DNA of 64,000 bases from Magnetococcales bacterium (GCA_015231175.1 JADGBZ010000001.1:18407-82406), one strand, 5' to 3'; shown: positions 9,142 through 43,588, counted from the first letter of the stretch. A program made the numbers and translations. The notes: generated from the sequence alone by a model not told the origin.

Positions 9142-10154
9142 TGAAATATCCTTTGGCTCGCATCACGGGAACCGGTTCCTGCCTGCCGGAAAGATGTCTC
9201 ACCAATGCTGAACTGTCCCGCATGGTGGATACCACCGAAGAGTGGATCTTTTCCCGCACCGGGATCAAGGAACGACGTATCGCCGCACCGGGTGAGTTGA
9301 CCTCTGATCTGGCTGTCCAGGCAGCCCGGCAAGCCCTGGCCGCTTCCGGTCTTGCAGCCGAACAATTGGACCTGATCATCGTGGCGACAACCACGGCAGA
9401 TCATGTCTTTCCGGCGACAGCCACCGTGGTGCAACACAAGCTTGGTATCACCAATCGGCATATTCCCGCTTTCGACATGCAAGCCGTGTGCGCGGGATTT
9501 ATCTACGGACTCTCTGTTGCGGAAAAGTATATTCTTTCCGGAAGCTGTCAGCGCGTCCTGCTGATTGGTGCCGAGGTCTTTTCCCGTCTCGTCGATTGGC
9601 GTGACCGTTCCACCTGCATCCTTTTCGGCGACGGAGCCGGGGCTGTGGTGTTGGAGGCCGTCAACGAAGGGGAACGCGGCCTTCTCTCCACCCACATTCA
9701 TGGCGACGGAACCTACCTGGATATGCTCAAAGGCCCACCCGGCATGGCCCAGTTGCCCATGAACCAAGGGGGTTGCGCCCCAGCCGAAGCCGTGCAACGT
9801 GACATTGGCTTCATGGAGATGCGTGGCAATGAAGTTTTCAAACACGCCGTCAAAGCCATGGGACAGGTGGCGGAAGATGCCCTGCAAGCCCATAGCCTGA
9901 CCGCTGATGATCTGACCTGGCTGATTCCCCACCAGGCCAACATACGCATCATACAAAGCATCACCAAACGGGTCGGCATCGACCCGAAACGGGTTGTGGT
10001 GACTTTGGAGCGACATGGCAACACCTCGGCAGCCAGTATTCCCCTGGCCCTGGATGAAGCCGTCCGCGACGGACGCATCAAGCCGGGGGATTTGGTGCTC
10101 CTGGATGGCTTCGGGGGCGGGTATGTCTGGGGAGCGGCCCTGATACGCTGGTGA
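9141..10154 (+). CDS. fabH: 3-oxoacyl-ACP synthase III (FabH)
   Basis: ITGTGSCLPERCLTNAEL...EWIFSRTGIKERRIA, active-site context MQAVCAGFIYGL, HQANIRII, and NTSAASIPLAL. ATG 9141 overlaps the plsX stop. Confidence 0.92.
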   Translation: MKYPLARITGTGSCLPERCLTNAELSRMVDTTEEWIFSRTGIKERRIAAPGELTSDLAVQAARQALAASGLAAEQLDLIIVATTTADHVFPATATVVQHKLGITNRHIPAFDMQAVCAGFIYGLSVAEKYILSGSCQRVLLIGAEVFSRLVDWRDRSTCILFGDGAGAVVLEAVNEGERGLLSTHIHGDGTYLDMLKGPPGMAQLPMNQGGCAPAEAVQRDIGFMEMRGNEVFKHAVKAMGQVAEDALQAHSLTADDLTWLIPHQANIRIIQSITKRVGIDPKRVVVTLERHGNTSAASIPLALDEAVRDGRIKPGDLVLLDGFGGGYVWGAALIRW

Positions 10155-10448
10155 TGTGACCCTGGATGGCAGCCCATTTATGCCTGCCCGGGGTGCAAAA
10201 CTTCTCTATATTGTCCCGATAATGGGGTTGTTGCGGTCAAAGTCAGACGCCTCGGTTATCAACCTGTTCGGGTTCGCGCCATCCCCTCCGCGCCTTAAAT
10301 AAAACCTATAGAATCATAAACCAAGAGAGTGGCTCTCCGGCAAACCCGGATAAGCGCCCATGAGGTTGGGGCGGCACTCTGCCCCATACCTTCGTGACAA
10401 ACCCAACTGTTCCTGATGATAAGAAATGCCATGATCCTACCTTTTTAC

Positions 10449-10666
10449 CAGGGCAATCACATTTGAAATCCGGTCATCAATTCAGACAGATTTTTTTTGC
10501 GCTGTGGGATGTCATGCAGACTTGATATGCCCTGGGAGCGCAGGCGTCTCGCCTGCCATGAGCGGGCGAGACGCCCGCGTTCCCAGACAAACCCGAAGGT
10601 TGCCCATCGGTCCAAAAACAAAAACTGTCATTATAAGGGTATCGGCATTTAAATGCGATTGCCCTG
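10449..10666. mobile_element. 218-bp MITE-like element (family B) with 10-bp target-site duplication
   Basis: Terminal inverted repeats CAGGGCAATCACATTTGAAAT (10449..) and ATTTAAATGCGATTGCCCTG (..10666), matching 19/21 when reverse-complemented. Flanked by identical ACCTTTTTAC at 10439-10448 and 10667-10676. No coding capacity. Confidence 0.7.
10532..10586. repeat. GC-rich 22-bp-stem hairpin inside the family-B element
   Basis: CTGGGAGCGCAGGCGTCTCGCC - 11 nt - GGCGAGACGCCCGCGTTCCCAG, with one G-T wobble and one mismatch. When spuriously translated it yields the ...AGETPALPG... peptide (see track ORF 10512..10733). Confidence 0.75.
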
Positions 10667-10771
10667 ACCTTTTTACTTGCATCATGGTGCAATAATCCGC
10701 ACGATCACACCCTGCGAGGGTGGCATGGGCCATGGTGTCGGCAAACTGACGAAGGTGTGTGGGGAAGAGCT

Positions 10772-13444
10772 ATGACCGAGGAGAGTGGCGGGCAGACGCG
10801 GGAAGAGGAGATGGAGATTCAGGAGTGGCGGGAAGCCCTGGAGTATGTCCTGGAACATGCCGGCTCGGATCGGGTGACCGAGCTGCTGCGAGAACTTCAC
10901 CACCATGCGCATCGGCTCGGCATCAAAATCCCCTTTTCTGCCAACACCCCCTACATGAATACCATTCCCCCCTCCGAACAGCAGCCCTACCCCGGGAGTC
11001 GGGAGATGGAGCGCCGCATCAAAAGCCTGATTCGCTGGAACGCCATGGCCATGGTGGTGCGTGCCAATCAGCAGGATGTGGGCATAGGGGGGCATATTTC
11101 CACCTTCGCCTCGGCGGCCACTTTGTATGAGGTGGGATTCAATCATTTTTTCCGGGGTCCAGAGGCGCCGTGTGGGGGCGATCTGGTCTTTTTCCAGGGA
11201 CATGCCTCGCCTGGCATCTATGCCCGCGCTTTTTTGGAAGGGCGATTGAGCGAACGGGATCTCTCCCATTTCCGCAAGGAGTTGGCAGAGGGAGGCGGGC
11301 TCTCTTCCTATCCGCACCCCTGGTTGATGCCCGATTTTTGGCAAGTCCCCACGGTCTCGATGGGGCTTGGCCCGATCATGGCCATCTATCAGGCCCGATT
11401 CATGCGCTACCTGGAAGACCGGGGATTGCGTCCCCCGACCGATGCCAAGGTCTGGGCCTTCCTCGGCGATGGCGAGACTGACGAGCCCGAGTCCCTGGGG
11501 GCCATCTCCCTGGCCGCCCGGGAGCATCTGGATAATTTGATCTTTGTCATCAATTGCAATCTGCAACGACTGGATGGTCCGGTGCGCGGCAACGGGCAGA
11601 TCATCCAGGAGCTGGAAGCAGATTTTCGGGGCGCCGGCTGGAATGTGATCAAGGTGATCTGGGGAGAGGATTGGGATCCCCTGTTTGCAAAGGATCACGA
11701 GGGTCTGTTGAGCCGGCGATTGGCGGAACTTGTGGATGGGGAGTACCAGAAACTCTCGATCGAAGGGGGCGCCTACGTGCGCCAGCAGGTGTTCGGCAAA
11801 TATCCGCAACTTTTGGAGCTGGTTTCCCACCACTCTGACGAGCAGTTGCACCGCATGCGGCGAGGGGGGCACGATCCGGCAAAGGTCTACGCCGCATTCC
11901 ACGCCGCCACGCGCCACAAGGGGGCCCCCTCGGTTGTCCTGGCCATGACCATCAAGGGGTATGGTTTGGGCGCAGCGGGGGAGGGATTGAACATCACCCA
12001 CCAGCAGAAAAAGATGACCGACGAGGAGTTGCGGGCCTTCCGGTCGCGCTTTGGCATACCGTTGTCGGACGAGGAGGTCTCCCATATGCCCTTCTTCCGC
12101 CCCGCCGAAGGGAGCGAGGAGATGCGGTATCTACAGGGGCAGCGGCGCAAGTTGGGGGGGTATCTCCCCAGCCGCAAGGCCAAGGCCGAGCCCATTCAAC
12201 CCCCGGCGGAGGAGATTTTCCAGGAGTTTGCCGATGGGACGGGCGAGCGGGAACTCTCCACCACCATGGTCTTTGTGCGCCTGCTGACCCGGCTTCTCAA
12301 GGATCCTGCGGTTGGGCGGTTGATTGTCCCCATTGTCCCGGATGAGGCGCGCACTTTTGGCATGGAGGCGCTGTTCCGGCAGTGTGGCATTTACTCCCAT
12401 CCGGGGCAGCTTTATGAGCCGGTCGATTCCAAAAGCCTCCTCTACTACAAGGAGGCCCGGGATGGCCAGATTTTGGAGGAGGGTATCACCGAGGCGGGTG
12501 GTTTGAGCTCTTTTATCGCCGCCGGGACCGCCTATGCCAACCACGGGGTGAATACGATTCCCTTTTTTGTCTACTACTCCATGTTTGGGTTGCAACGGGT
12601 GGGAGATTTGATCTGGGCTGCGGCGGACATGCGGACGCGGGGATTTTTATTTGGTGGCACGGCTGGTCGCACCACGTTGGCCGGGGAAGGGCTCCAACAC
12701 CAGGATGGGCAAAGCCATCTGCTCGCTTTGCCCATACCAACCCTGATGGCCTACGATCCCGCCTACGCCTATGAGGTGACCATCATCGTTCAGGATGGGT
12801 TGCGGCGCATGTATGTGGACCAGGAGGCTTTGTTCTACTACGTCACCATCATGAACGAAAATTATACGCATCCTCCCATGCCCAAAGGGGCGGAGAGCGG
12901 CATTTTGAAGGGGATGTATCTTCTGGAGGGAACGACCGCTCCTGCCCACTGGCCCCGCGTGCAGCTCATGGGGAGTGGCGCCATTCTCAACGAGGTGGTC
13001 AAGGCGCGGGAGATGCTGGCCCGATACGAGGTGGCTGCCGAGGTGTGGAGCGTGACCAGTTACAAGGAGCTGCGCCGGGATGCCCAGGAGGCGGAACGAT
13101 GGAACATGTTCAATCCTGGCAACGAGCCGGTGCAATCTTATCTCGCCCAATGTCTGAAGGATCGTTCCGGACCTTTCATCGCTGCCACCGACTATGTCAA
13201 GGCCTTGCCGGATCTGATCGCCAAGTGGTTGCCTGGCCCCCTGCTTTCGTTGGGGACCGATGGCTTTGGCCGGAGCGAAACCCGTGCGGCGTTGCGGGAC
13301 TTTTTCGAGGTAGATCGGCGACATGTCACTCTGGCCGCACTGAGCCAACTGTATGACATGGAGTTGTTGCCGGTGACCGTGGTGCAACGTGCCATCCAGG
13401 AACTGGAGATCGATCCCGAACGCATCAGTCCGGTGCGTCGCTAA
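10772..13444 (+). CDS. aceE: Pyruvate dehydrogenase E1 component (homodimeric AceE type)
   Basis: About 890 aa. EWREALEYVLEH..., RWNAMAMVVRAN, GGHISTFASAATLYEVGFNHFFRG, thiamine-PP motif GDGETDEPESLGA...NLIFVINCNLQRLDGPVRGN. ATG 10772 preferred over GTG 10757. Confidence 0.92.
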   Translation: MTEESGGQTREEEMEIQEWREALEYVLEHAGSDRVTELLRELHHHAHRLGIKIPFSANTPYMNTIPPSEQQPYPGSREMERRIKSLIRWNAMAMVVRANQQDVGIGGHISTFASAATLYEVGFNHFFRGPEAPCGGDLVFFQGHASPGIYARAFLEGRLSERDLSHFRKELAEGGGLSSYPHPWLMPDFWQVPTVSMGLGPIMAIYQARFMRYLEDRGLRPPTDAKVWAFLGDGETDEPESLGAISLAAREHLDNLIFVINCNLQRLDGPVRGNGQIIQELEADFRGAGWNVIKVIWGEDWDPLFAKDHEGLLSRRLAELVDGEYQKLSIEGGAYVRQQVFGKYPQLLELVSHHSDEQLHRMRRGGHDPAKVYAAFHAATRHKGAPSVVLAMTIKGYGLGAAGEGLNITHQQKKMTDEELRAFRSRFGIPLSDEEVSHMPFFRPAEGSEEMRYLQGQRRKLGGYLPSRKAKAEPIQPPAEEIFQEFADGTGERELSTTMVFVRLLTRLLKDPAVGRLIVPIVPDEARTFGMEALFRQCGIYSHPGQLYEPVDSKSLLYYKEARDGQILEEGITEAGGLSSFIAAGTAYANHGVNTIPFFVYYSMFGLQRVGDLIWAAADMRTRGFLFGGTAGRTTLAGEGLQHQDGQSHLLALPIPTLMAYDPAYAYEVTIIVQDGLRRMYVDQEALFYYVTIMNENYTHPPMPKGAESGILKGMYLLEGTTAPAHWPRVQLMGSGAILNEVVKAREMLARYEVAAEVWSVTSYKELRRDAQEAERWNMFNPGNEPVQSYLAQCLKDRSGPFIAATDYVKALPDLIAKWLPGPLLSLGTDGFGRSETRAALRDFFEVDRRHVTLAALSQLYDMELLPVTVVQRAIQELEIDPERISPVRR

Positions 13445-15049: not shown

Positions 15050-15337
15050 TCAATCCTGCCGCAAGGAGACCGATACGTCGGTACGCCTGCGTTCCGGAGC
15101 ATTTTCACGCTCCTCCAGGAGGGCGACCAGCTTGTGGATAAACTCGGTTGACACACAATGATCCACCCAGGATTGCAAGGCAGCCACTGCAGTTATCGAT
15201 GGAATTTCAGGAATTTCCCGAAACTGATCCAGCACCCAGTTCTCGGCATGCAGGCGAAAAGTTTCGATCAGGTCACGAACCAAGCCATACAGGGCAGGGA
15301 AATTTTCATCCGTAACCGTGACGCTTTGTCGTTTCAT
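15050..15337 (-). CDS. Hypothetical 95-aa protein
   Basis: ORF only. No motif recognised, weak RBS. The composition looks protein-like (acidic, helical). Confidence 0.4.
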   Translation of the reverse strand: MKRQSVTVTDENFPALYGLVRDLIETFRLHAENWVLDQFREIPEIPSITAVAALQSWVDHCVSTEFIHKLVALLEERENAPERRRTDVSVSLRQD

Positions 15338-15593: not shown

Positions 15594-15737
15594 ATGAGCA
15601 CACTGAGCAATGACAAACCGAGCATCGTCGAACGTGTTGTGGAGAACGTTGGACTGATTACCATCATGGGGTTGGTCTTCGCGGCTGCACCGCTTCTGGC
15701 AGCGTGGTCCGTCAAAGGGCTGATTCAGATCTTTTAA
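15594..15737 (+). CDS. Possible 47-aa single-pass membrane peptide
   Basis: My translation: MSTLSNDKPSIVERVVENVGLITIMGLVFAAAPLLAAWSVKGLIQIF. Preceded by CAGGAGCGAGACC-ATG (AGGAG 8 nt upstream). Below the track cutoff. It competes with antisense ORF 15506..15715, which looks non-coding. Confidence 0.3.
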   Translation: MSTLSNDKPSIVERVVENVGLITIMGLVFAAAPLLAAWSVKGLIQIF

Positions 15738-15981: not shown

Positions 15982-16995
15982 TCAGTAACAGGTTCCGCCC
16001 GCCTCCTGAAGGAGCATTTCCACTTCGTCGTGGTGCTTTTCCAGAGCCATCAAACGGGCGGTGACGCCTTTGTTGTCCCGCTCGTTCACGCGTATCCCTT
16101 TGCCCAGAAGATATTTCACAATCTCCGCATGGCCGTTTGCCGAGGCGAACATCAGCGCGTTAAGGCCATCCTCGTTCTTCACATGAATATCGGAACCAAA
16201 TTCCACCAACATTTTAACGATCTCGGTATGGCCCTTGTCCGCCGCAATGAGGAGGGCCGTGCAGCCGCACTGGTGATTCCGCTCGGCGCTGGCCTTTTTC
16301 TCGATCAACATGCGGGCGGCCTGAACGTCGCCATACTGGGCAGCCAACATGAGGGGCGTACTCCCCTCCTTGTCCTGGGCATTGATGTCGGCCCCGGCCT
16401 TGATCAGGGCCGGCAACAGGTGCGCGTTGCCATACTGGATGGCCAGATGCAAGGCTGTACGCTTTTTCTGGTTGACAGCCTTGACGTCAGCGCCCTTGGC
16501 GAGCAGCATTTCCAGAATTTTTTGCCGTGTTGCCTGCTCGGCAGGCTCCTTCAACCGCACGGCGACCAATTTCAGGAGCGGCGTCCAGGATCCTTTGGTT
16601 TGAAAGTTGACATCCCCCCCATGCTGGATCAAGGCTTCGACCAACTCTGGATGCAGCCACTCCGCAGCCAAAAACAGGGCCGTGCATCCAGCTCTCTGGT
16701 GGGGGGCGTTCACCTCGGCGCCCTTGCTTAAAAGGAGTTTGACGACCTCGGCGCTCCCCTCCTGCGAGGCCAGCATGAGCAGAGACATACCGACCTGATT
16801 GTACTGATTAGGGTTGGCTCCCCGATTCAGGGCGTCCCGGACAGCGACCCAGTTCCCTTTGTTCGCATCATCCCAAATTCCGGCTTCTGGAGCTGCGGCT
16901 CCCTGGTGTGCCCCTCCCTGGGCCAAGGCCACCGAGTTAATCCCTATGCCACCGGCCAACAGCAGCATACAAAGCACGGCTGCGATCTTGTTCAT
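15982..16995 (-). CDS. Secreted ankyrin-repeat protein (about 8 ANK repeats)
   Basis: Start trimmed to MNKIAAVLCMLLLAGGIGINSVALAQG (Sec-type signal peptide). The ATG overlaps the upstream gene's TGA (ATGA). Repeats of type G-TALH/LM-AA--GH-E-VK-LL--GAD-N recur throughout. Confidence 0.85.
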   Translation of the reverse strand: MNKIAAVLCMLLLAGGIGINSVALAQGGAHQGAAAPEAGIWDDANKGNWVAVRDALNRGANPNQYNQVGMSLLMLASQEGSAEVVKLLLSKGAEVNAPHQRAGCTALFLAAEWLHPELVEALIQHGGDVNFQTKGSWTPLLKLVAVRLKEPAEQATRQKILEMLLAKGADVKAVNQKKRTALHLAIQYGNAHLLPALIKAGADINAQDKEGSTPLMLAAQYGDVQAARMLIEKKASAERNHQCGCTALLIAADKGHTEIVKMLVEFGSDIHVKNEDGLNALMFASANGHAEIVKYLLGKGIRVNERDNKGVTARLMALEKHHDEVEMLLQEAGGTCY

Positions 16996-17573
16996 GATAG
17001 ACCACCCTCGGTTCGTGACCCCTTTGTCAGGCGAAAACTGCCAAAAATCTCCCGACGTGTCAAATCCTGCTGCCATCGACAGGTCATGGAGCGTTCCCTG
17101 CGAACATTCTCGCGGAACTGGACAACATCCGTCCAGGCAGAAAATACCTGATCGGCAGTTTGGTACCGGGACAAACCGACCACCAGGGGCTGGAGGTAAA
17201 AAGAGCCAAGCTGGGGGTCATACTGGACATGGGCATCCTGATCCTGTCCCAGCATGGTCAGGCTGACCCTGGGCCCCAACGTCGGCAGAGAGACCTGTTC
17301 CCAGGCCTGCGCGACCGTATCATGCGGCGGTTTCCCGGGAACCAGAACCCGGCAAAGCATCCAGGGGGTAAGCTGTAGAAAGACACTCCACCCCTCCACA
17401 TGGCGGCATGCCCTGACTTCATGGCCCAAAAGAGGATTGATCACCTCCATTTCCAGACCAGGCACACTCTGCTCCGCACCCAAGCGGCGGGTGGCAGCCG
17501 CGAAGAGTTCCTGAAACGCCTGCAAAAAAAACACCCATTCCGGGTCACAAGGGCTTGGCTGGGTGTCGTGCAT
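16992..17573 (-). CDS. HybE-family ([NiFe]-hydrogenase-type Tat proofreading) chaperone-like protein
   Basis: Trimmed from track ORF 16992..18044 to MHDTQPSPCDPEWVFFLQAF... The segment EGWSVFLQLTPWMLCRVLVPG resembles the HybE signature (E. coli HybE: EGQWTGCVITPWMLSAVIFPG). The first 157 aa of the track ORF are a Pro/Arg/Trp-rich shadow overlapping the TorD-like frame. Confidence 0.55.
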   Translation of the reverse strand: MHDTQPSPCDPEWVFFLQAFQELFAAATRRLGAEQSVPGLEMEVINPLLGHEVRACRHVEGWSVFLQLTPWMLCRVLVPGKPPHDTVAQAWEQVSLPTLGPRVSLTMLGQDQDAHVQYDPQLGSFYLQPLVVGLSRYQTADQVFSAWTDVVQFRENVRRERSMTCRWQQDLTRREIFGSFRLTKGSRTEGGLS

Positions 17574-18090
17574 GATCGCCTCCAAACAGATCCAAAAGCC
17601 GCGACCCAAGAAAGCCGTAGAGCGCCAAACCAGCCGACTCCTTGAGCCTGGTCGCAAACCTCGGCACCCAGATGGCCAAGTGTTCCTCCCACAACTCCCA
17701 CCGCAAGTCGGCCTGGGCCACGCGCTGCGCCGCAAGGTGGGCGGCCAGATCCAGCATGGAGCCCAGAAAATCCGGAGAGATATCCGGGTCCGCTGCAACA
17801 CCCGCACGCTGGTAGAGTCCGGCGATGGCCTGCACACAATCCCCCCCCAGAACGCCATGCCGCCAGAAGCTCTCAAAGGGGGGACAAGGTGTCGTGGGAA
17901 AGCCGTTGACAAAGAGCCGGGTATGTTCAGCCTGCCACGACTCCAGGGAAATTCCCCGGAGTTCGGGACAGACCGCCTGCAACCCGGGAAGCTCAATGGC
18001 CATCTCCTCGACGGCGGCCAGGGATCCTGGCTCGGGCTGCCCAAGCAGCCCGGCCAGCAGGGTCAACTCATGTTCCAAGGTGATGGTCAT
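17545..18090 (-). CDS. TorD/DmsD-family redox-enzyme maturation chaperone
   Basis: ESWQAEHTRLFVNG (the E-x-x-RLF family signature) and ...PDFLGSMLDLAAHL (the DH-type helix). The start at ATG 18090 is chosen to avoid overlapping the NrfD gene. An alternative start lies at 18123. Confidence 0.7.
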   Translation of the reverse strand: MTITLEHELTLLAGLLGQPEPGSLAAVEEMAIELPGLQAVCPELRGISLESWQAEHTRLFVNGFPTTPCPPFESFWRHGVLGGDCVQAIAGLYQRAGVAADPDISPDFLGSMLDLAAHLAAQRVAQADLRWELWEEHLAIWVPRFATRLKESAGLALYGFLGSRLLDLFGGDHARHPAKPL

Positions 18091-18100
18091 GAGATCATGG

Positions 18101-19057
18101 TTACCACGGATAGGCGTAAACACCAGCCGACATGAAATAGTGCCGCAGGAGATACCCTCCAGTGAGCACCAAAACCGATGCCGTCACGATGGGAACCTTG
18201 CCGGACCAGGAACCGAAAACGCATTTCAGCTCCATGGCCAGGGGGATCATCAACCCACACACGACGAAGCCCATCACCCAACCCGAATCGTTCCACAACA
18301 GCTCAGCCGACCGGTAGCCAGCCTCCGATCCAGAGAGCGTATAGTTGAAGAAAGAGTAGATGACAACCAACTCCGCCGTGATCAACCCGATATCCACCCG
18401 TTCATAGAGTGCCCGGATGGTGTGATCCACCCGGTGGTAGATAAACATGTACATGACGATGAGAAGCCAGGCCATGGAGGTGGAAAAGGCAGAAACCGTG
18501 AAGAGAATGGGCACGCCCGGGTTGTGCCACAGGGCCACCGCCGGGAAACTCTGCAAGAGCAACCCGGTATAGACAGCAGTCCCCAGGCCGGTCACGACGG
18601 CAATCCATCCCAGAACAGTCTGGTATTTTTGCGCGGTCACCGCCACATCGCGGGTGATTTTCATCCGCAGAAAATCACCCATGACAGGCCAGCCCAGGAG
18701 GCGCTTTTTTTCCACCATGAAAGGCAGGGCAAACAGGACAGCCGCGATCTGGAGCCAGAGGATGAACTGCGAACCCCAGGCGATCCAGGAATCGGGTTTA
18801 TGAAAGATGCCCCATGGGGTCAGGATGTACACCGCCGCCCATTTGTGCAACAGGTGGAGGAAGAGCATGCCGGACCCCAGAGTCAACATGGCCGTGCCGG
18901 AGAGAGCCCCCCACATCACCAACTCTTTCTCCTCCCGCAGATACATGTGGGTAAGAAAGCTGACCACGATCACAGCGGCTCCCATGCCGCCAAGAAAGAG
19001 ATACAACGCAAACCACCACGTCCACAAATTCTGAGTGCTGTAGGTCATGATTTCCAT
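18101..19057 (-). CDS. NrfD/PsrC-family integral membrane quinol-interacting subunit
   Basis: 318 aa with about 8 TM helices. N-terminus WTWWFALYLFLGGMGAAV is typical of the NrfD/PsrC family. Positioned after the Mo and FeS subunits. Confidence 0.85.
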   Translation of the reverse strand: MEIMTYSTQNLWTWWFALYLFLGGMGAAVIVVSFLTHMYLREEKELVMWGALSGTAMLTLGSGMLFLHLLHKWAAVYILTPWGIFHKPDSWIAWGSQFILWLQIAAVLFALPFMVEKKRLLGWPVMGDFLRMKITRDVAVTAQKYQTVLGWIAVVTGLGTAVYTGLLLQSFPAVALWHNPGVPILFTVSAFSTSMAWLLIVMYMFIYHRVDHTIRALYERVDIGLITAELVVIYSFFNYTLSGSEAGYRSAELLWNDSGWVMGFVVCGLMIPLAMELKCVFGSWSGKVPIVTASVLVLTGGYLLRHYFMSAGVYAYPW

Positions 19058-19066
19058 GCGGATCTC

Positions 19067-19666
19067 CTACCGTTGGGGAATGTAGTAAACGTTGGGACGA
19101 GTCCCCAGATGGGCCAGGAGCGGCTTGGCCGTGCCATTGCGCACCAACTCCGTGGCCGGGTAGGCGGGACTATCCAGATCGCCCAGCATTCTCGCCTCGC
19201 CCGGGCAGGTTCGCACGCAAGCCGGCAATTCACCCACCTTGAGCCGGTGATGGCAGAAGGAACATTTGTCCATGCTGGGGGCCTTGCGTTTCAGTACGCC
19301 GTAATACTCCTTCCCGGTTTTGATATCCGCATGGGTAAAGGGGTAGCGGGCATTGTAAGGACAGGCCAGGGCACAGGCTTGACACCCCATGCACAAAGTC
19401 TCGTCCACCATCACCACCCCATCGGAGGTCCGATAGGTCGCTCCGGTCGGACAGACACTCATGCAGGGGGGATTGGTGCAGTGGTTACACAGGCGGGGGA
19501 TGAAATGCCGCCGGACCGTGGTGCCGGATCCACTCTCCCGGTCGTGGACGTAGGTCCGCCAATGATCGGACCAGACCGGTGTTTGATTTTCCAGCGAACA
19601 GGCAGCCATGCAGGCATTGCAGCCCACACAGGTGTTCATATCAATAACCATGACGTAACGGGTCAC
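19067..19666 (-). CDS. 4Fe-4S ferredoxin-type electron-transfer subunit (PsrB/DmsB-like)
   Basis: Four Cys clusters: CVGCNACMAAC, CNHCTNPPCMSVCP, CMGCQACALACP, CSFCHHRLKVGELPACVRTCP. Confidence 0.9.
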   Translation of the reverse strand: MTRYVMVIDMNTCVGCNACMAACSLENQTPVWSDHWRTYVHDRESGSGTTVRRHFIPRLCNHCTNPPCMSVCPTGATYRTSDGVVMVDETLCMGCQACALACPYNARYPFTHADIKTGKEYYGVLKRKAPSMDKCSFCHHRLKVGELPACVRTCPGEARMLGDLDSPAYPATELVRNGTAKPLLAHLGTRPNVYYIPQR

Positions 19667-19680
19667 GATGCCACTCCTTT

Positions 19681-22446
19681 TCAGATTTTTTCGATCCGCA
19701 CGGTAAATTCCTGAGAACGGAATCCCGCGACAACGGGCTCAACCATATAGGGGATCAGCTTGTTGGTGGCCGTGCCAATTCCCACACTCAGACGCAACGC
19801 CTTGTTCTCGACGCCGAACGACGAGTGCAGGAAAATGGAGTCCGGATGCAGTTGGTTGGTCACATAGGCTGTTCCCTCCGCCTGCTGGCCGGAGAGCTTG
19901 TTGGTCACCATGATGCGATCGCCGGAGACGATTTCCAAAGTCGCAGCCCGGTCAGGGTGGATCCAGATACCGGTGTAGATATCCTTCTTGAATCGGTTGA
20001 TGGCCGCCAGCACCGGGTTATTGCTGTTGGTGGAACCATAGGAGATGGTCGGGGTCTTGCCGTAGGTAAAATAGAATTCATCCTTTTCCAGGGGTTGATC
20101 CATGGTCTTGCCATCACGGCAGGTGGCGGGAATGGCGGCAGCCAGAACGTTGAAGGATGGACCTTTCCCCCCCATGCCATCGCGCAGCCACACGAAGAGG
20201 GAACCAAAAAACTCCAGACGTCCACTCGTGGTCGGCAGGGCCATTTGCCGGGGCATGGCATGGTGGGCCAAAATCTCTTCCGCCGGCATTTCAAGATGCA
20301 CGCCATGACGTTTGAGGCTTTCGCGCAACTCTTTGGGTGAGGTATGAATCCGGGCAGCGGTCATGTCGAAGGCAACGTCACGGCATGCCTTGGAGTAGGG
20401 ACTTTTCTCCCCTGCCGCAAGGTATCTTTCATACGCAGCCATGGTGGCCTTGCCCGGAATGCCGCTCAGGGCCTCCAACATCTTGACGAACGGCTCCGTG
20501 GTTCCTGATATGACCCGGCTGAGCCCCAACAGGATATCTGGAGTTTCCAGGGTGTCGTACAGGGGCTTGATCGCACCAAAACGGGTCGTCAGAGCCAGGT
20601 CATGATTGACCCCGTTGCCATAGATGGTCGGCTCGTCCCGTTCCAGGTAGGTCGGGTTGGGCAGAATGACATCGGCATAGGGAACGGTGTCCGACGGCAA
20701 CACATCCACAACCACAACCAGCTCCATGTTGGCATGGGTCAGGATGGTCTTCCATTGGGTATCCGGATAGTAATGCCGAACCGGATTGGCAGCGTTGATC
20801 ACGATGGCCCGTGTCAGGTAAGGCTGGCCATTGTAGACCAGTTTGCCGGTCACGGACTCCATCAAGCCTGTATCCGCCAGGGCCGGCACGGCGACCGCCT
20901 CGCGACCGGCTGCCCGTTCCTGCGCGGAAAAAGCGAAGGCCCAGGCCGGATGACCATGCGGGAAGGTCTTGGGGTTGGAGATGGCCTTGATCAACTCGCC
21001 CACGAAAGGAACGCCCGCCACGGAGGTCATGAGGGGACCGGGGGAACGCTTTTCCCGATTGGCTTCATGCCAATTGGCCACCTTGTGGTGGTACTCGCCG
21101 CTCATGATCCAGCCACCCTTGCGGTCGATTCCCCCCACCAGGGCCTGCAACATGGCCTGCACCCGCCGGAGCATGTTGATATTGGTATACCGGGCGCCAT
21201 GCCAACCCGGATCCACGATGGGCCGCCCAGCCGCAGCAAAGTCTCGGGCTGTCCTGAAGATGACCTGGGCGGGAACCCCTGTCGTTTTGGCTGCCCACAA
21301 AGGCGTATTGGCCGAGATTTCCGCAATCTGGGCCTGGAGGACGGTCATCACGGGGCGGCCTTCCAAAACCAGGCCATCCGGGGCATACAGGGCCGGGTAC
21401 ACTGGCCCTCCCTTGATATCCACCACGTTCTGGTGGCTGAAAGGGGGTATGGAAACCACCTCTCCGGTGCGTTCCTGGACAACCCGTGGGTTGCCATCTG
21501 CATCCGTGGCGATGGCCCAAGCGCCGTTTGCATCCCGCGCCAGAAGGAACGGCATGTTGGTGTGCTTCTTCAAAAACTCCCCATCATAGAGTTTCTCGGT
21601 CAGGACCACATGCATCATGGCCACCATGAAATCGAGATCCGTACCCGGACGGATCCGAATCCACTCGTCGGCCTTGGCGGCAGTTTCCGAGAGCCGGGTA
21701 TCCAGCGCCACAACCCGGGCGCCCTTTTTGCGCGCCTCGGCGAACCGCACCATGCGGGAGGTGGAGATGGCACCGATGGAAGCATTGTTGGCCACGAAGA
21801 GAATATAGTTTGCGTTGTCGTAGTCGGGAAGAACTTCATCGTGAATGTTGAAGTTGCCGGTCACCGAGTCGGTTCCGAGATGTCCCGAGGCCACGCAGTG
21901 CTGCATGGGCGAAGCGACAATGTTGGGCACCCCGTTGGACAAAGCGAAGGGGACGGCCCAATACATGTAGAAAACACACGAGGTCCAACCGCCTACCATG
22001 GTCCACTCCCAGGGCTGGATCTTCTTGGTCCTGGTCTTCTCCTCGATGTAGGCCCAAGCCTCTTCCCAGGTGACGGAGCGGAACTCCGCCTCCCCCCGCT
22101 TGCTCCCTTCCACCCGGATCATGGGCCCCTTGATGCGATCCACATCGTAGACTTGGCGCATGCCGGCTTGGCCCCGGGCACACATTTTTCCCCGGTTCAG
22201 GGTGGAGTGAGGGTTGCCATCCAGTTTGACGATGCGCTTGACCCCATTCTCCGTCTCGGTGGTCACCTGGACATTACACAGCGAGGAACAAAAATTGCAG
22301 ATGCTGTAGACCTGCTCCCTGGTGACATCGTCGCCGCGTGCGACCTCGCCACCAACAAGCTGCGGGGCCAACAGAGAGAGCCCCGCGACCCCTCCGCTGG
22401 ATTGAAGAAATCTACGTCTGGTCAACCTTGGGAATCGCCAGGACAT
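19681..22446 (-). CDS. Tat-exported molybdopterin (bis-MGD) oxidoreductase catalytic subunit, Psr/Phs/Arr-like; substrate unknown
   Basis: Twin-arginine leader MSWRFPRLTRRRFLQSSGGVAGLSLLAP, an N-terminal FeS motif CNFCSSLCNV...MCARG, and about 920 aa. Start trimmed to ATG 22446, which follows GGAGAGGAG. Confidence 0.9.
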   Translation of the reverse strand: MSWRFPRLTRRRFLQSSGGVAGLSLLAPQLVGGEVARGDDVTREQVYSICNFCSSLCNVQVTTETENGVKRIVKLDGNPHSTLNRGKMCARGQAGMRQVYDVDRIKGPMIRVEGSKRGEAEFRSVTWEEAWAYIEEKTRTKKIQPWEWTMVGGWTSCVFYMYWAVPFALSNGVPNIVASPMQHCVASGHLGTDSVTGNFNIHDEVLPDYDNANYILFVANNASIGAISTSRMVRFAEARKKGARVVALDTRLSETAAKADEWIRIRPGTDLDFMVAMMHVVLTEKLYDGEFLKKHTNMPFLLARDANGAWAIATDADGNPRVVQERTGEVVSIPPFSHQNVVDIKGGPVYPALYAPDGLVLEGRPVMTVLQAQIAEISANTPLWAAKTTGVPAQVIFRTARDFAAAGRPIVDPGWHGARYTNINMLRRVQAMLQALVGGIDRKGGWIMSGEYHHKVANWHEANREKRSPGPLMTSVAGVPFVGELIKAISNPKTFPHGHPAWAFAFSAQERAAGREAVAVPALADTGLMESVTGKLVYNGQPYLTRAIVINAANPVRHYYPDTQWKTILTHANMELVVVVDVLPSDTVPYADVILPNPTYLERDEPTIYGNGVNHDLALTTRFGAIKPLYDTLETPDILLGLSRVISGTTEPFVKMLEALSGIPGKATMAAYERYLAAGEKSPYSKACRDVAFDMTAARIHTSPKELRESLKRHGVHLEMPAEEILAHHAMPRQMALPTTSGRLEFFGSLFVWLRDGMGGKGPSFNVLAAAIPATCRDGKTMDQPLEKDEFYFTYGKTPTISYGSTNSNNPVLAAINRFKKDIYTGIWIHPDRAATLEIVSGDRIMVTNKLSGQQAEGTAYVTNQLHPDSIFLHSSFGVENKALRLSVGIGTATNKLIPYMVEPVVAGFRSQEFTVRIEKI

Positions 22447-22550
22447 GTGTACTCCTCTCCGTTGCACAATAGGACGAACAGTAGCGCAAGCCCGCTCTCT
22501 GCATGATGAAAACCCCCCATCGCGGCGAGCCGGCCCCTCGTGTCATAAGG

Positions 22551-22565
22551 GCAACATTCGTGCCT
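22551..22565 (-). promoter_or_regulatory. Candidate sigma54 (-24/-12) promoter of the oxidoreductase operon
   Basis: The minus strand reads AGGCACGAATGTTGC, i.e. GG-N10-GC with GGCACG and TTGC, close to the consensus TGGCACG-N4-TTGC. It lies about 105 nt upstream of ATG 22446, and a sigma54 activator gene is divergent. Confidence 0.6.
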
Positions 22566-22676
22566 CTCTAGGGGAAATTTTGCCAAAAATTTACAACAGA
22601 TTGTAATTTTTCATGAAAAATTTTACATTCGTGCAGCGTTCCTGTTACATTTGCGGCCAACCGGGGTGAATTCCCT

Positions 22677-22719
22677 GCCATCCATGACAAACTTGACAAT
22701 TCGGTTTGTCATGGATGGC
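22677..22719. promoter_or_regulatory. Perfect 16-bp inverted repeat, candidate enhancer (UAS) or operator
   Basis: GCCATCCATGACAAAC - 11 nt - GTTTGTCATGGATGGC. It lies about 115-155 bp upstream of the putative -24 element, separated from it by an AT-rich tract (22575-22625). Confidence 0.5.
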
Positions 22720-22789
22720 AGAATATCTTCGACAATTTTGCCAACCCCATGGGTTTCGCACACATCCTCCGCCCGAAAGGTTCCACTGC

Positions 22790-24220
22790 ATGACGGTCTC
22801 CCTGGCGCACACCATTCCGACCATCGATGCTGCGGCATTTTTAAGCATTCATCCCGTGCCGACCATTCTGGTCGACCTGGAGTATCGTGTTCTGGCCTGC
22901 AACAAGCTTTACGAGGAGACTTATGGTCCCATCGTGGCTCTGGGGGAGGTGCGGTGCTATGAGATATCCCACGCCTATGCGCGCCCCTGCGATCAGGAGG
23001 GGGAGTCCTGTCCTCTGCATGCTTGTTTGGAGACTGGACTGAGTCAACGTCTGCTCCACGTGCATCAGACCTCCGAGGGGAAAGAGTATGTTGATGTGGA
23101 GATCCGACCCATTCATGACCAGGCAGGCCGAATCACCCATTATTTGGAGATTTTGACCCCGGTCCGCATCGCTTCTGCCGACCCGGCCCCCGTGGGGTTG
23201 GTCGGTTCCTCGCCAGCTTTTCAGCACATGCTGCGGATGATCCAGCGGGTTGCCAACAGCAAGGCTTCCGTCCTCTTGCTGGGCGAGTCGGGCACCGGCA
23301 AGGAGGTGGTTGCCCGGGCCATTCATCAGGCCAGTCCGCGGGCGAACATGCCTTTTGTCCCTGTTGAATGCTCCGGTTTGACCGAGAGTCTGTTCGAGAG
23401 TGAGCTGTTTGGATATGAGCGCGGCGCCTTTACCGGCGCTCACTTGCGGAAAACCGGCCTGGCTGAGGTTGCACACCAGGGGACGCTTTTTCTGGATGAG
23501 ATTGGCGACATCCCCCTCTCTCTGCAAGTCAAGTTGCTGCGTCTGTTGGAAACCAAGAGTTTTCGCCGGGTCGGTGGCGTCAACACCCACTATGCCAACT
23601 TTCGGTTGATCTGCGCGACCAACCGGGATCTCTCCGCCATGGTGGCGCGTGGCGAGTTTCGTCTGGATCTCTTCTACCGTATCGGGGTATTCCCCATCCA
23701 CATGCCCCCCCTGCGTGAACGCCGTGAAGACCTCCCCCTGCTCGTCCAATCGCTTCTGGACCGCATGGAGGGCGGCCAGATGATCCATTTGGCACCGGAG
23801 ACAATGGCCTGGCTCATGACCTATCCCTTTCCTGGCAACATACGGGAGTTGATGAACATCCTGGACCGGGCCATCCTGATGATGGACGGCAGCACCATGC
23901 TGCCCGAACATTTGCCACACCAGGCGCAAGGCATACCTACCCCTCCTCCCCTGCGCCATCCCGGTCCGCAAGCCGCTTTTGATCTCCTTTTTCCTCCCGG
24001 TCCGCATCTGCCCACGGAGGGTGCGCCAGTCACCTTTCACCTGCGAAAAGTCCTGCCTTTGGAACACATCGAAAGACTCTATCTGGACGAGGTATTGCGG
24101 CAATTCGGTGATGACAAGACGCAACTGGCCAAGGAGTTGGGTATCAGCCTGCGCACCCTGTATCGCAAGATTGAAATCATGGAGGGGGGGCCAAGCGACC
24201 CCGAGGATGGGAAAACTTGA
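22790..24220 (+). CDS. Sigma54-dependent Fis-family transcriptional activator with Cys-rich PAS sensor
   Basis: AAA+ core [23 protein letters not shown] loop (ERGAFTGA), and C-terminal HTH ([12 protein letters not shown]). The N-terminal PAS-like domain carries [25 protein letters not shown]. Start trimmed to ATG 22790, so that the inverted repeat is intergenic. Confidence 0.88.
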
Positions 24221-24330
24221 GAAGGAGGTCACAATCCGCCCCTCCTCCATTGACGAAGTGTTTTTTTTCGGGGAATCTCCCCGGGTTGTGAATGGCCAAC
24301 CGACTTAAAGGCGCAGGTTTGGAGGTTACC

Positions 24331-25338
24331 ATGTTTTGTCCAAAATGCGGTTCGGAGTTGCCGGCGGCTGCCGCGTATTGTCCCCGATGCGGTGAACAAA
24401 GCGGGAATCCCTCTTCCCGGGAAAAACCACTTCCCGATACATTCATTCAACCCTCAACGACAGCAACCATCACCTACGCCGGTTTTTGGGTTCGATTGGC
24501 AGCCGTTTTTTACGATAGTCTGATATTGAACATACCCACCATGATCTTTGGCTTTATTTTTGGGCTAATTTACTACTCCAACAACCCCAACGCCGCAGCA
24601 AAAGAGAATGATTCTCTCTTCAACCTCATCGGTATTCTTGTGGCCTGGATTTACATGGCGCTCATGGAGAGTTCCTCGAAGCAGGCCACTCTGGGCAAAA
24701 TGCTGCTCAGGATCAAGGTGACCGATCTCTCCGGCAACCGTTTGTCGTTTGGCAGGGCTTCCGGGCGATACTTTGGCAAGACCATCTCGTTCATGATCCT
24801 GTGCATCGGCTTCCTCATGGCCGGGTTCACCAGTAAAAAACAGGCCCTGCACGACAAGATGGCAGGATGTCTGGTCATCAACAACCAGGAGACCAAGGGG
24901 CGCAAGGTCTGGATGATCATCGCTCTGGCCATCATGTTTTTGCTTCCCACGGGAATCATCTCCTCCCTGGTTCTGCCCTCTTACCTGAAACAGGCTGCAC
25001 ACGCCCAGGTATCCGAAGTGGTGTCGCTGCTCGAAAGTGGTGAAAAATCGTTGACGGAGTGGTATGCAACACACGGCTACTGGCCGGAACCAGGCAGGAA
25101 TGTTCCCCTTATCGGGCCGGGAAAGTACGTAGAGAGCGTTGACCTGAGCCAATCCGGTCCAGGCGCAACGACCCCCGCTTTGATCGTAACTGCCACGTTG
25201 GGATCCAGCACCGTCGCCAAGGAGATCGTGGGCAAGAGCGTGCAAATAGCCACCAACGATGGAGGGGCTACCTGGAGCTGTGGTGCCGGCCTCTTCGACG
25301 GCGTGGACAACAAGTATCTGCCAACAAAATGTCGTTGA
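24331..25338 (+). CDS. Zinc-ribbon / RDD-domain membrane protein fused to a type IVa pilin globular domain
   Basis: N-terminus MFCPKCGSELPAAAAYCPRCG (zinc ribbon). RDD-family core (FWVRLAAVFYDSLI...GKMLLRIKV...ALHDKMAGCLV). The C-terminus LPSYLKQAAHAQVSEVVSLLESGEKSLTEWYATHGYWPE...GKYVESV...VTATL...KEIVGKSV...ATWSCGAG...KYLPTKCR aligns by eye with Neisseria PilE ([39 protein letters not shown]...GKYV...VTAT...WFCG...KHLPSTCR). RBS GGAGG precedes ATG 24331. Confidence 0.8.
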   Translation: MFCPKCGSELPAAAAYCPRCGEQSGNPSSREKPLPDTFIQPSTTATITYAGFWVRLAAVFYDSLILNIPTMIFGFIFGLIYYSNNPNAAAKENDSLFNLIGILVAWIYMALMESSSKQATLGKMLLRIKVTDLSGNRLSFGRASGRYFGKTISFMILCIGFLMAGFTSKKQALHDKMAGCLVINNQETKGRKVWMIIALAIMFLLPTGIISSLVLPSYLKQAAHAQVSEVVSLLESGEKSLTEWYATHGYWPEPGRNVPLIGPGKYVESVDLSQSGPGATTPALIVTATLGSSTVAKEIVGKSVQIATNDGGATWSCGAGLFDGVDNKYLPTKCR

Positions 25339-41889: not shown

Positions 41890-43588
41890 GTAGTCGTTCA
41901 GAGACCCCTGGACCTGAAAGCCCAATGATGATTTGATGGGGGCGATGTCGCAACAGATTGCAAGGTTCACTCCATGAAGCTTACTGACCACGATTTGCTC
42001 CAGTTTGATGAGAGATATCTGGCTTCCCTTGAGCCGGGTTCTCTGTTGGCAGTGAGCAAAAAGCTTTTGTCCGATCTCAAGGAATCTCGTGAGCGTTTAA
42101 ACCAGACGCCCGACAACAGTTCCCGCCCCCCCAGTAGCCGTTCCCCTTACCTTGGGATTCCAGAGGAAGGGGGGGTAGACTCTTCGAATGAGCATAACGA
42201 AGATGTCACGAACTCTTCGGTTGAGAAGGGAAAATCGGAAAAAGAAGACGACGATCACAGAGATGGTAATGGTTCTGGTGGTTCCGACAGCACAGGGAAA
42301 TCACGCTTTAAAAAGCAGAAGCGCAAAGCGGGAAAACAGGTCGGCGCTCCTGGCTATGGACGGCAGCAGAAGATTCCGGCTCAGCGGGAGGAGATTCATA
42401 AAGCGGACAAGTGCGTAGCCTGTGACGCCGTCATTCCTCTGGATATTCCATTTGCGGCCCAGATCGGGTTTTTTGTTTTGGAGTTGATCAGTGGAACTTT
42501 GGAGCATCCTGGTTTGAGACTGGAATGCACCAAGCACCTTTTTGGTGATTCCATTTGTGGATGTGGACATGTCACCCGTACTGGTCCTGGAATTGGGGAG
42601 CGACACGTAGTGGAGGGTCGAAAAGATGCCACCTGTCTGAGTGAATGGCGACTGATTGGCCCCATGCTGGCGGCATTCATCGTGGCCCTTAACCTGCGCA
42701 TGAGACTGTCGCGGCCCCGGATCCGGGAATTTTTGATGGATTGGTTCAGCCTGGAACTGAGCGCCGGGACCATCGACAAGTGTATCCGCAAAGCCGGTTT
42801 GGCGGTGAATCCGATTTATCAAGATGAACTGATTGACGAGGCTCGCCAATCTGGCTTGATCAACGTGGACGAGACCCCATGGAAGGAAAAGGGGGTTGCC
42901 CGATGGTTGTGGGTATTCGTGACAGCCAACACGGTCTTGTTTTTTGTGGGTCGTCGCACCCAGCAGGTTGTCTTGGACATTCTGACCGAGGCCTATGCGG
43001 GCTGGCTGATGAGTGACGGACTCATGAACTATCGGATCTTTTCGAGACGGCTCCGCTGCTTGGCCCACTTGATCCGAAAGGCGCGAGGGTTGGCTGAGAG
43101 TCTTGATGCAGAGACCAAGCTGTTCGGCGACAGGACATTGGAAGTCCTGGAGTTCGTCGTTGGTCAAGTCCGAGACGGACCTGATCGGACCATCTTTCAG
43201 CCGATACTGTCAGATTTCAAATGGCTCTGCGAATGGCATAGGGCGGAAACGCCAGAGGGAAAGCTGCGCAGCCTTGCCGTTGAGTTTCTCAACGACTGGG
43301 ATGTGATTTGGATGACTCTGGAACATCCAGATTTGCCGTTGACCAACAACGAGGCGGAACGCGCCCTGCGCCACTGGGTCATTGCCCGCTTGATCAGCCA
43401 TGGGACTCGCACTGCTGAAGGGAGTCGGGTCTTTACCGTATTGGCCAGTGTGATCGAAACCTGCCGGAGGCGGAAAGTATCTCCTTGGACCTATCTGGCG
43501 ACGGTTATTGCAGAACGTAAAAAGGGCAACCCCTCACCAGCTTTGCCCGTTCCGATGGTGGTTTAAGGTGGGGTCTCTGAACGGTTAC
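41890..43588 (+). mobile_element. IS66-family insertion sequence, single-ORF type (1699 bp)
   Basis: IRs GTAGTCGTTCAGAGACCCC / GGGGTCTCTGAACGGTTAC (17/19). The 8-bp flanks GTAGATTC and GTAGACTC match 7/8. Confidence 0.88.
41974..43566 (+). CDS. IS66-family DDE transposase
   Basis: 530 aa: LNQTPDNSSRPPSS, CVACDAV / CGCGH zinc-finger-like pairs, NVDETPW, LMSDGLMNY, CLAHLIRKA, LTNNEAERALRHWV. Confidence 0.9.
   Translation: MKLTDHDLLQFDERYLASLEPGSLLAVSKKLLSDLKESRERLNQTPDNSSRPPSSRSPYLGIPEEGGVDSSNEHNEDVTNSSVEKGKSEKEDDDHRDGNGSGGSDSTGKSRFKKQKRKAGKQVGAPGYGRQQKIPAQREEIHKADKCVACDAVIPLDIPFAAQIGFFVLELISGTLEHPGLRLECTKHLFGDSICGCGHVTRTGPGIGERHVVEGRKDATCLSEWRLIGPMLAAFIVALNLRMRLSRPRIREFLMDWFSLELSAGTIDKCIRKAGLAVNPIYQDELIDEARQSGLINVDETPWKEKGVARWLWVFVTANTVLFFVGRRTQQVVLDILTEAYAGWLMSDGLMNYRIFSRRLRCLAHLIRKARGLAESLDAETKLFGDRTLEVLEFVVGQVRDGPDRTIFQPILSDFKWLCEWHRAETPEGKLRSLAVEFLNDWDVIWMTLEHPDLPLTNNEAERALRHWVIARLISHGTRTAEGSRVFTVLASVIETCRRRKVSPWTYLATVIAERKKGNPSPALPVPMVV

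Follow-up and report, generated by a model that had tools for sequence, protein, structure and literature searches.

A six-gene operon on the minus strand of a 64-kb stretch of Magnetococcales DNA (GCA_015231175.1, JADGBZ010000001.1:18407-82406; hereafter the window, with positions counted from its first letter) encodes a molybdoenzyme of PsrABC architecture, and as judged from synteny its first five genes are one copy of a conserved module that is widespread in sulfur oxidisers and has moved between lineages. With moderate confidence, we consider that the whole of the evidence is best explained if this module specifies a periplasmic, quinone-linked oxidoreductase of sulfur compounds whose synthesis is induced by sulfide or polysulfide. 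The operon covers positions 15982-22446, and its genes, here termed A to F, correspond in order and coordinates to the six minus-strand genes with tiny gaps or overlaps of the original prediction, made from this DNA alone, all six identities of which hold. The spacers measured on the sequence are 14 nt between A and B, 9 nt between B and C and 10 nt between C and D, while D and E overlap by 29 nt and E and F share the tetranucleotide ATGA at 16995-16992. Such an arrangement is far beyond chance: dozens of genomes unrelated to one another have A, B, C, D and E in this order.

The molybdoenzyme subunits and their nearest relatives

Gene A (19681-22446, minus strand) encodes a catalytic subunit of 921 amino acids, exported through the twin-arginine translocation (Tat) pathway and of the type that holds a molybdenum-bis(pyranopterin guanine dinucleotide) (Mo-bisPGD) cofactor, as identified with Pfam, NCBIfam and a profile search of the PDB. 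The protein begins with MSWRFPRLTRRRFLQ, shows the FS0 motif CNFCSSLC...C and matches the families Molybdop_Fe4S4 (PF04879), Molybdopterin (PF00384) and Molydop_binding (PF01568). It carries the Tat motif TRRRFLQ and a hydrophobic h-region, and the twin arginines are found in the N-termini of 76/76 orthologues, where the n-region of the signal follows the clade-wide pattern M-[AGT]-W-x-[FYIL]-P-x-[LMF]-[STN]-R-R (window positions 22417-22446). A catalytic subunit of about 920 residues with a Tat signal, bis-MGD-type domains and a CxxCxxxC...C motif was precisely what had been proposed. The product of gene B (19067-19666, minus strand; 199 amino acids) is an electron-transfer subunit of the four-[4Fe-4S] ferredoxin type, with four groups of cysteines and matches to Fer4_11 and related Pfam families; it lacks a signal peptide and would be exported as a passenger of A. 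Its best NCBIfam models are DsrO and TtrB, both below cut-off, and it is 32% identical to Escherichia coli HybA. Gene C (18101-19057, minus strand) encodes a haem-free membrane quinone/quinol subunit of the NrfD/PsrC type, matching PF03916 over the full length of the profile (E 2.5e-24). The ferredoxin and NrfD/PsrC assignments of the original prediction are thereby confirmed, and the set is that of a three-subunit complex iron-sulfur molybdoenzyme of the Psr type: a catalytic subunit with FS0 and a Tat signal, adjoined by a four-cluster ferredoxin and a haem-free NrfD protein.

These features are shared with PsrABC, as known from Thermus thermophilus (PDB 2VPW-2VPZ) and Wolinella succinogenes, and with PhsABC, all of which combine a Tat-exported Mo-bisPGD subunit having FS0 and a cysteine ligand to Mo with a four-cluster iron-sulfur subunit and a haem-free NrfD anchor. 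T. thermophilus PsrA is the best solved relative of A (E 6e-63 with the single sequence and 2.4e-82 with the profile), and its Mo ligand Cys173 aligns with Cys184, invariant in the clade of A, while PhsA (NF012032) is the best NCBIfam model. The two proteins differ in size, the alignment of A with PsrA falling into four blocks separated by three insertions (at profile positions ~299-376, 451-540 and 636-790) that accompany a length ~160 residues greater in A. Identity to enzymes of PhsA/PsrA size is only ~31-36%, and A remains below the PhsA cut-off (312.6 versus 694 bits, in 4 stretches) and further below those of the ArrA (95.3 versus 1600 bits) and TtrA (37 versus 1750 bits) equivalog models. 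A further difference from PsrABC and PhsABC is that genes A to C come with TorD-type and HybE-type genes.

When A was scored against 1.84 billion representative sequences, its clade constituted one representative and was followed by a sister of 49% identity, then by a tier of Tat-bearing proteins of 915-1159 amino acids (37-44% identity) and after these by PhsA/PsrA-sized proteins of 690-865 amino acids (~30-36%). In a neighbour-joining tree, the core clade and the core clade plus its sister were each recovered in 40/40 bootstraps, nested in a long group with proteins of Hippea, Hydrogenobaculum and a member of the Nitrososphaeria, and apart from the cluster (Arcobacter) named PhsA by the Prokaryotic Genome Annotation Pipeline. 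This answers in part the call in the original prediction for a placement against curated clades: a separation from the PhsA-named cluster was obtained, in a tree that covers the curated references only partly (SoeA, Aquifex SreA, SrrA and ArxA are not among them) and in which the neighbouring clusters bear mostly generic names. Outside the clade, Hydrogenobaculum and the sulfur reducer Hippea come closest among named organisms. By its sequence, then, A is a member of an uncharacterised long branch of Psr/Phs-like enzymes and not a PhsA, ArrA or TtrA equivalog. None of the characterised families with which it was compared includes the catalytic subunit, whose placement in one of them would have spoken against the original prediction.

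The Tat signal also bears on the proposition that A-C correspond to SoeABC, the sulfite:quinone oxidoreductase described in Allochromatium vinosum, or to a close paralogue of it. Hosts (sulfur oxidisers with Dsr/Sox), three-subunit plan and a long catalytic subunit are common to both, and a bSreA/SoeA lineage was reported to form a large radiation (PMC10100899). However, SoeA and the Soe-like cluster 2 are reported to be cytoplasmic in orientation and devoid of a Tat signal (PMC6620896; PMC10100899), whereas the clade of A combines its 76/76 twin arginines and hydrophobic h-region with a dedicated TorD-type chaperone, and the Tat motif was present in all full-length relatives with at least 37% identity whose N-terminus was examined. 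Since it has a Tat signal, A does not fit SoeA as described, and although the distinction is drawn by description only, we regard this identity as highly improbable.

A conserved module with two putative maturation proteins

Synteny was followed with tblastn and profile hidden Markov models (HMMs) of each family in 80 loci carrying A homologues 58-86% identical to that of the window, 60 of which, with at least 1.5 kb of sequence after C, were informative. The hosts are Magnetococcales and alpha-, beta- and gammaproteobacterial sulfur and iron oxidisers: Magnetospira, Rhodospirillaceae and Rhodomicrobiaceae; Sulfuricella, Sideroxydans, Gallionella, Hydrogenophilales and Rhodocyclaceae; the Chromatiaceae Allochromatium palmeri, A. 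humboldtianum, Thiorhodococcus, Imhoffiella and Thioalkalicoccus; and Sedimenticola, Thiomargarita/Thioploca, Ca. Thiodiazotropha, Ca. Thiosymbion and Ca. Kentron. Gene D adjoins C in 55/60 informative loci and was found with the family HMM in 71 loci, and E follows in order in 51/60. The same five genes, with matches to PF02613 and PF11939, appear in the gene calls of Sedimenticola and Thioalkalicoccus, and both D and E are present in the 49%-identical metagenomic sister. The pairing of TorD-like and HybE-like genes, considered an atypical maturation set in the original prediction, turns out to be normal for a large clade, and the synteny of the HybE-like gene, which had been singled out there as decisive, extends to the sister. 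Clustering of all flanking open reading frames (ORFs) of the 80 loci gave no other conserved neighbour than a regulator, in 13 loci. Genes for synthesis of the Mo cofactor adjoin the module in two loci, namely moeA, moaC and moaA in L092 (1-1548) and moeA and a MobA-like gene in L086 (7232-9111).

The relatives with 37-41% identity (Hippea alviniae, Hydrogenobaculum and two metagenomic contigs) have the Tat signal, the ABC genes and usually a TorD-type gene; no HybE-like gene was detected in them, and their signals lack the n-region motif of the clade. This co-occurrence of motif and gene is weak evidence of a connection, because it reflects a single evolutionary event. The module represents a conserved molybdoenzyme without assigned function, listed in databases under generic names, in at least 80 species that include sulfur and iron oxidisers, symbionts and magnetotactic bacteria, and cultured carriers are available among them (Sedimenticola hydrogenitrophicus, Thioalkalicoccus limnaeus, Allochromatium palmeri, A. 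humboldtianum, Thiorhodococcus fuscus and Imhoffiella purpurea).

Gene D (17545-18090, minus strand) encodes a maturation chaperone of the NarJ/TorD/DmsD family, with a PF02613 score of 65.8 bits against a cut-off of 22.2 and the EHTRLF motif by which it had been recognised as TorD-like from the start. It belongs to no named subtype, since its scores with the DmsD, TorD and type-II chaperone equivalog models were all below their cut-offs. Gene E (16992-17573, minus strand) codes for a HybE-family protein. The profile check that had been suggested for this assignment upheld it, with PF11939 (HybE) matching at 37.2 bits (gathering threshold, 25), and 46/47 clade members of the E family matching the same model (best E 4.9e-24). 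A word-indexed homology search with E gave only 4 hits, and the family was collected by tblastn and HMMs from the 80 loci. Its profile has E. coli HybE (2KC5) as sole match in the whole PDB (E 1.3e-3, 21.4 bits), and the family HMM aligns with the N-terminal 60 residues of HybE, including the TPWML motif (LTPWML in E), at 17.8 bits.

The resemblance to E. coli HybE comprises the Pfam family, TPWML and an Arg-Arg motif at the C-terminus, which in the clade is nearly invariant and twin-arginine-like (S/T-R-R-E-F/I-F; T-R-R-E-I-F in the window protein) and could be a pseudo-signal. In E. coli HybE, the sequence GRRALLF lies close to the C-terminus. The client of HybE and the putative client of E are also alike, both complexes being exported through Tat with an iron-sulfur protein of the HybA/PsrB type and an anchor of the HybB/NrfD type. 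HybB is an NrfD-family member, and given also the 32% identity between HybA and B, hydrogenase-2, the client of HybE, shares an electron-transfer module with the Psr-like enzyme. The differences lie in the gene context, a molybdoenzyme for E and a hydrogenase for HybE, and in the strong divergence of E, evident in the scores of 21.4 and 17.8 bits just mentioned and in that obtained with the hydrogenase-HybE model TIGR03993, well below its cut-off (17.6 versus 78.5 bits). HybE-family proteins are so far known only in connection with hydrogenases, and literature searches on HybE or ankyrin proteins together with molybdoenzyme operons returned nothing relevant.

In the mechanism that we propose, A would fold in the cytoplasm, receive Mo-bisPGD and its FeS cluster and bind the signal-less B, after which the pair would be exported via Tat and dock on the NrfD subunit C. 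D and E may act as two cytoplasmic chaperones dedicated to the export step of A/B: D, as a NarJ/TorD-type protein, would hold the Tat leader and assist in cofactor insertion, and E would be a second proofreader, as HybE is for the Tat-exported hydrogenase-2. If this is true, a HybE-family protein reserved for a molybdoenzyme would add to the clients known for Tat proofreading chaperones, and a systematic annotation error would be put right.

The NCBI name of E is "[NiFe]-hydrogenase assembly chaperone HybE", and this name, along with the 9/60 informative loci in which E does not adjoin the module, would be accounted for if E served a hydrogenase encoded elsewhere and E and/or F were passengers in the operon, F being an unrelated secreted protein. 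Neither hydrogenase large or small subunits nor maturation genes (homologues of HybC, HybO, HybD, HybF and HybG) are found in the window, and a hydrogenase lies nearby in 1 of ~90 loci. Moreover, E follows D in loci belonging to four classes, the reading frames of the two genes touching or overlapping, and its TIGR03993 score does not agree with a hydrogenase role. We thus consider a passenger status unlikely, and the NCBI name is probably misleading in a molybdoenzyme context. The only locus with a hydrogenase is L046, of gammaproteobacterial origin, where a hybO-hybA-hybB-hybC cluster of the hydrogenase-2 type is located at ~19284-22761, ~4 kb downstream of the Psr-like operon.

The divergent regulator and the predicted inducer and reaction

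A gene divergent from the operon, R (22790-24220, plus strand; its start Met at 22790 was checked), encodes a FisR-type sigma-54 enhancer-binding activator with the Pfam domains PAS_4, Sigma54_activat, AAA_lid_14 and a Fis-type HTH_8. Its sensor domain led, by tblastn, to a gene of Cupriavidus metallidurans CH34 whose product is 47% identical to R over the full length (E 2e-134) and has cysteines at 53, 64 and 71 from its own start. The CH34 gene is divergent from genes for a persulfide dioxygenase-like protein (Blh model, 390 bits) and a protein resembling sulfide:quinone oxidoreductase (SQR), a neighbourhood that is the pdo-sqr arrangement controlled by FisR. The cysteine triad of R, Cys56/67/74 when counted from Met 22790, is in register with Cys53/Cys64/Cys71 of FisR and is kept by 15/15 operon-adjacent homologues. 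In FisR, a tetrasulfide is formed between Cys53 and Cys64 with sulfane sulfur (PMC9495516; PMC7315123).

A sigma-54 (-24/-12) promoter, AGGCACGAATGTTGCC, was identified by consensus scan at 22550-22565 on the minus strand, 103 nt upstream of the start codon of A, with 2 mismatches to TGGCAC-N5-TTGCW and with GG and GC intact; a strict search of the whole window allowing at most 1 mismatch misses it. Sites with up to 2 mismatches were present in 9/13 other loci with R adjacent (10 when L013, where R is cut by the contig end, is counted), at 58-126 nt upstream in all but one R-adjacent locus (224 nt), as well as in five other loci, and in shuffled upstream regions they appeared in 2.8% of cases. 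About 110 nt upstream of the promoter, the R/A intergenic region contains an inverted repeat, CTGCCATCCATGACAAAC-N11-GTTTGTCATGGATGGCAG (22675-22721), whose 18-bp arms match perfectly and are separated by 11 nt. It was considered as a conserved activator site and discarded as such: the same intergenic region is devoid of the repeat in 14 relatives, L004 with its 86%-identical A included. In the window it is a possible binding site of the activator.

The likeness of R to Cupriavidus pinatubonensis FisR encompasses domain order, the 47% identity to the CH34 orthologue, the cysteine triad, the divergent arrangement and a sigma-54 promoter at the target. It differs in having a Psr-like molybdoenzyme operon as target, while that of FisR is persulfide dioxygenase plus SQR, and in a fourth cysteine (C-x4 after the triad) that most R homologues possess. 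R is predicted to sense sulfane sulfur as FisR does, and the activator, taken together with its promoter, indicates sulfide or polysulfide as the likely inducer, a concrete prediction that can be tested. The view, expressed in the original prediction, that the sequence offers no handle on the substrate was too pessimistic, as the divergent activator and the promoter had been missed. A FisR-like protein, 44% identical in the sensor region, is also encoded on a Pseudoalteromonas xiamenensis plasmid (L091, 5956-7269), by a gene that diverges from an operon for cytochrome bd oxidase (cydP, cydB, cydX and ybgE).

In our preferred reading, the FisR-type activator and the sigma-54 promoter would drive the operon here and in ~15 relatives, with transcription switched on by sulfide or polysulfide, as expected from a regulator that keeps the triad cross-linked by sulfane sulfur in Cupriavidus FisR. 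The substrate would be an inorganic sulfane-sulfur species and the most likely reaction a quinol-driven reduction of polysulfide or stored S0 under anoxic sulfidic conditions. Genes annotated as psrABC/phsABC, which may be orthologues, are up-regulated in Ca. Thiosymbion oneisti under anoxic-sulfidic conditions (PMC8269255), and the Thiosymbion locus in our set (L081) belongs to the clade. Otherwise, comparable operons have been mentioned only as "polysulfide reductase-like", with function and direction unknown (PMC4853749; PMC11267869). If the enzyme reduces stored sulfur, a physiology that has been observed for a long time in large sulfur bacteria would have a gene. As for the broader proposal of a respiratory or detoxifying reductase among whose substrates no choice could be made, the position outside characterised clades stands, and the genetic context now narrows the candidates, most likely to sulfur compounds.

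The enzyme may also work in the opposite direction, as a periplasmic, quinone-reducing oxidase of sulfide or polysulfide through which electrons of sulfane sulfur would reach the quinone pool. A role of this kind has been suggested for the polysulfide-reductase-like complexes that green sulfur bacteria possess, and it would agree with hosts that are all sulfur or iron oxidisers and with the control of sulfide-oxidising genes by FisR in Cupriavidus. The authors of the Thiosymbion study, however, interpreted the up-regulation as respiratory reduction (PMC8269255), and Hippea, closest among the cultured outgroups, reduces sulfur, so that we hold the oxidative alternative to be possible though doubtful. 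A different reductase, acting on thiosulfate or tetrathionate, or on oxyanions of As, Se or Te, and not on polysulfide or S0, would find some basis in PhsA being the best NCBIfam model, in the resemblance of B to TtrB and ArrB, in the apparent substitutions at presumed substrate-site positions described below, and in the response to arsenite of a Soe-like Mo enzyme in Thioalkalivibrio (PMC6620896). It seems unlikely to us in view of scores far below the cut-offs of the PhsA, ArrA and TtrA models, the separation from the PhsA-named cluster, and the FisR triad of R, next to which no regulator of another sensor class adjoins the operon in the window.

Several observations weigh against the sulfane-sulfur reductase that we favour. 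Neither the clade nor the long branch around it includes a characterised member. The PsrA residues His145 and Arg332, reportedly part of the substrate site in the structure, do not appear to be conserved: the corresponding positions read G/W and W415, with invariant H416 and R419 nearby, in a region of uncertain alignment. A FisR-type regulator adjoins the operon in only ~16 of ~83 loci, those of Sulfuricella among them, and upstream of that of Sedimenticola there are a dCache kinase and a sigma-54 response regulator and no FisR-type gene. With regard to E, the loci without an adjacent copy have to be added, as well as an AlphaFold model that, built from 4 sequences, reached a predicted local distance difference test (pLDDT) value of just 49.

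The ankyrin protein and the surroundings of the operon

The last gene of the operon, F (15982-16995, minus strand), encodes a Sec-exported ankyrin-repeat protein, identified by its signal peptide (ending ALA/QG), an AlphaFold model and its Magnetococcales relatives. The model (pLDDT 91.6) displays nine helix pairs and a six-residue tail, so that F has 9 repeats and not the approximately 8 of the original prediction, which was otherwise correct as to the nature of the protein, its signal peptide and the ATGA overlap. In tblastn searches of the loci, F gave matches in Magnetococcales only, and a survey of its conservation, which had also been advised, placed it in 6/8 informative Magnetococcales relatives besides the window but outside the conserved module. 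It stands directly after E in the window, L005, L006, L008, L092 and L093, with an overlap of 4 nt in L008 like the ATGA of the window, and a further orthologue (P0298) is encoded on a 2.7-kb contig. F is absent from L004, despite the 86% identity of its A protein, from L007 and from every non-Magnetococcales locus. These absences would be expected of a passenger, whereas the position directly after E in all loci with context and the overlapping frames argue that F belongs with the operon. From this spacing, we infer that F is co-transcribed with the operon. It would be a periplasmic accessory protein that came in later, in Magnetococcales only, and is coupled to E in translation.

A signal peptide was found in 7/7 orthologues of F, Cys-bearing repeats (H[PQ]RAGCTAL and NHxCGCTAL) in 6/7 and a C-terminus GG[RT]C[YFSM] with an invariant penultimate cysteine in 7/7. 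This cysteine is possibly comparable to those on the C-terminal arms of SoxY and DsrC, although the tail of F has only about six residues. The Pseudomonas aeruginosa ankyrin-like protein AnkB is reportedly co-transcribed with katB, and it resembles F in generic ankyrin repeats and in gene setting, each being an exported bacterial ankyrin protein whose gene lies directly downstream of that of a redox enzyme and is apparently co-transcribed with it. The enzyme partner is different, and F is set apart by its 9 repeats, conserved cysteines, GGxCx C-terminus and restriction to Magnetococcales.

A bolder proposal joins the role of the enzyme, the export pathway and the ankyrin partner, and we think it improbable that all its parts hold together. 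The enzyme would be the missing periplasmic catalyst for respiring or mobilising stored S0 and polysulfide once oxygen and nitrate are exhausted, in lithotrophs that store sulfur, namely Beggiatoaceae, Chromatiaceae, Sedimenticola-type symbionts and magnetotactic cocci, with the FisR-type sulfane-sulfur sensor as the switch. Its export would follow a previously unrecognised two-chaperone route in which E reads the clade-specific W-x-[FYIL]-P-x-[LMF] segment before the twin arginines, and F would be a sulfur-carrying or substrate-presenting partner by means of its penultimate cysteine (GGxCx-COOH).

Other genes take the place after the operon or after F in some loci. An EAL-domain gene directly follows the operon where the ankyrin gene is missing (L004, 15555-16769; L007, 16221-17426), and L093 encodes an EAL-domain protein, with EAL and CZB domains, at 10001-11224. 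A Pyr_redox_2 flavoprotein of 376-377 amino acids is encoded directly after the ankyrin gene in L008 (6579-7712, plus strand) and L092 (10064-11194, minus strand), its best NCBIfam model being type III SQR, at weak scores of 66-71 bits against a cut-off of 525. In the window, a 95-amino acid ORF without Pfam match (containing ENWVLDQFREIPE) is located at 15050-15337 on the minus strand, with an AT-rich upstream region of its own, and homologues of it lie downstream of the operon in L004 (~17089 onward), L006 (16108-16497) and L007 (15566-15946). A 47-amino acid predicted membrane peptide, MSTLSNDKPSIVERVVENVGLITIMGLVFAAAPLLAAWSVKGLIQIF, is encoded at 15594-15737 on the plus strand, and L004 encodes a homologous C-terminus. 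L093 has genes of 90 (11780-12052) and 47 (11384-11527) amino acids, neither with a Pfam match, at the positions of the 95-residue ORF and of the 47-residue peptide, respectively, the likeness being positional only in both cases.

The remainder of the window is of a housekeeping character, with plsX, fabH, aceE, ispH, cobalamin genes and genes for a mur ligase, a penicillin-binding protein and arginine decarboxylase. An IS66-family transposase is encoded at 41974-43566 (plus strand), within a stretch of lower GC content at 42-46 kb. Beyond the regulator, the gene at 24292-25338 (plus strand) codes for a protein of unusual make-up, in which a zinc ribbon and an RDD membrane domain are fused to a pilin domain at the C-terminus, and an RDD-plus-pilin gene likewise lies beyond the regulator in L093.

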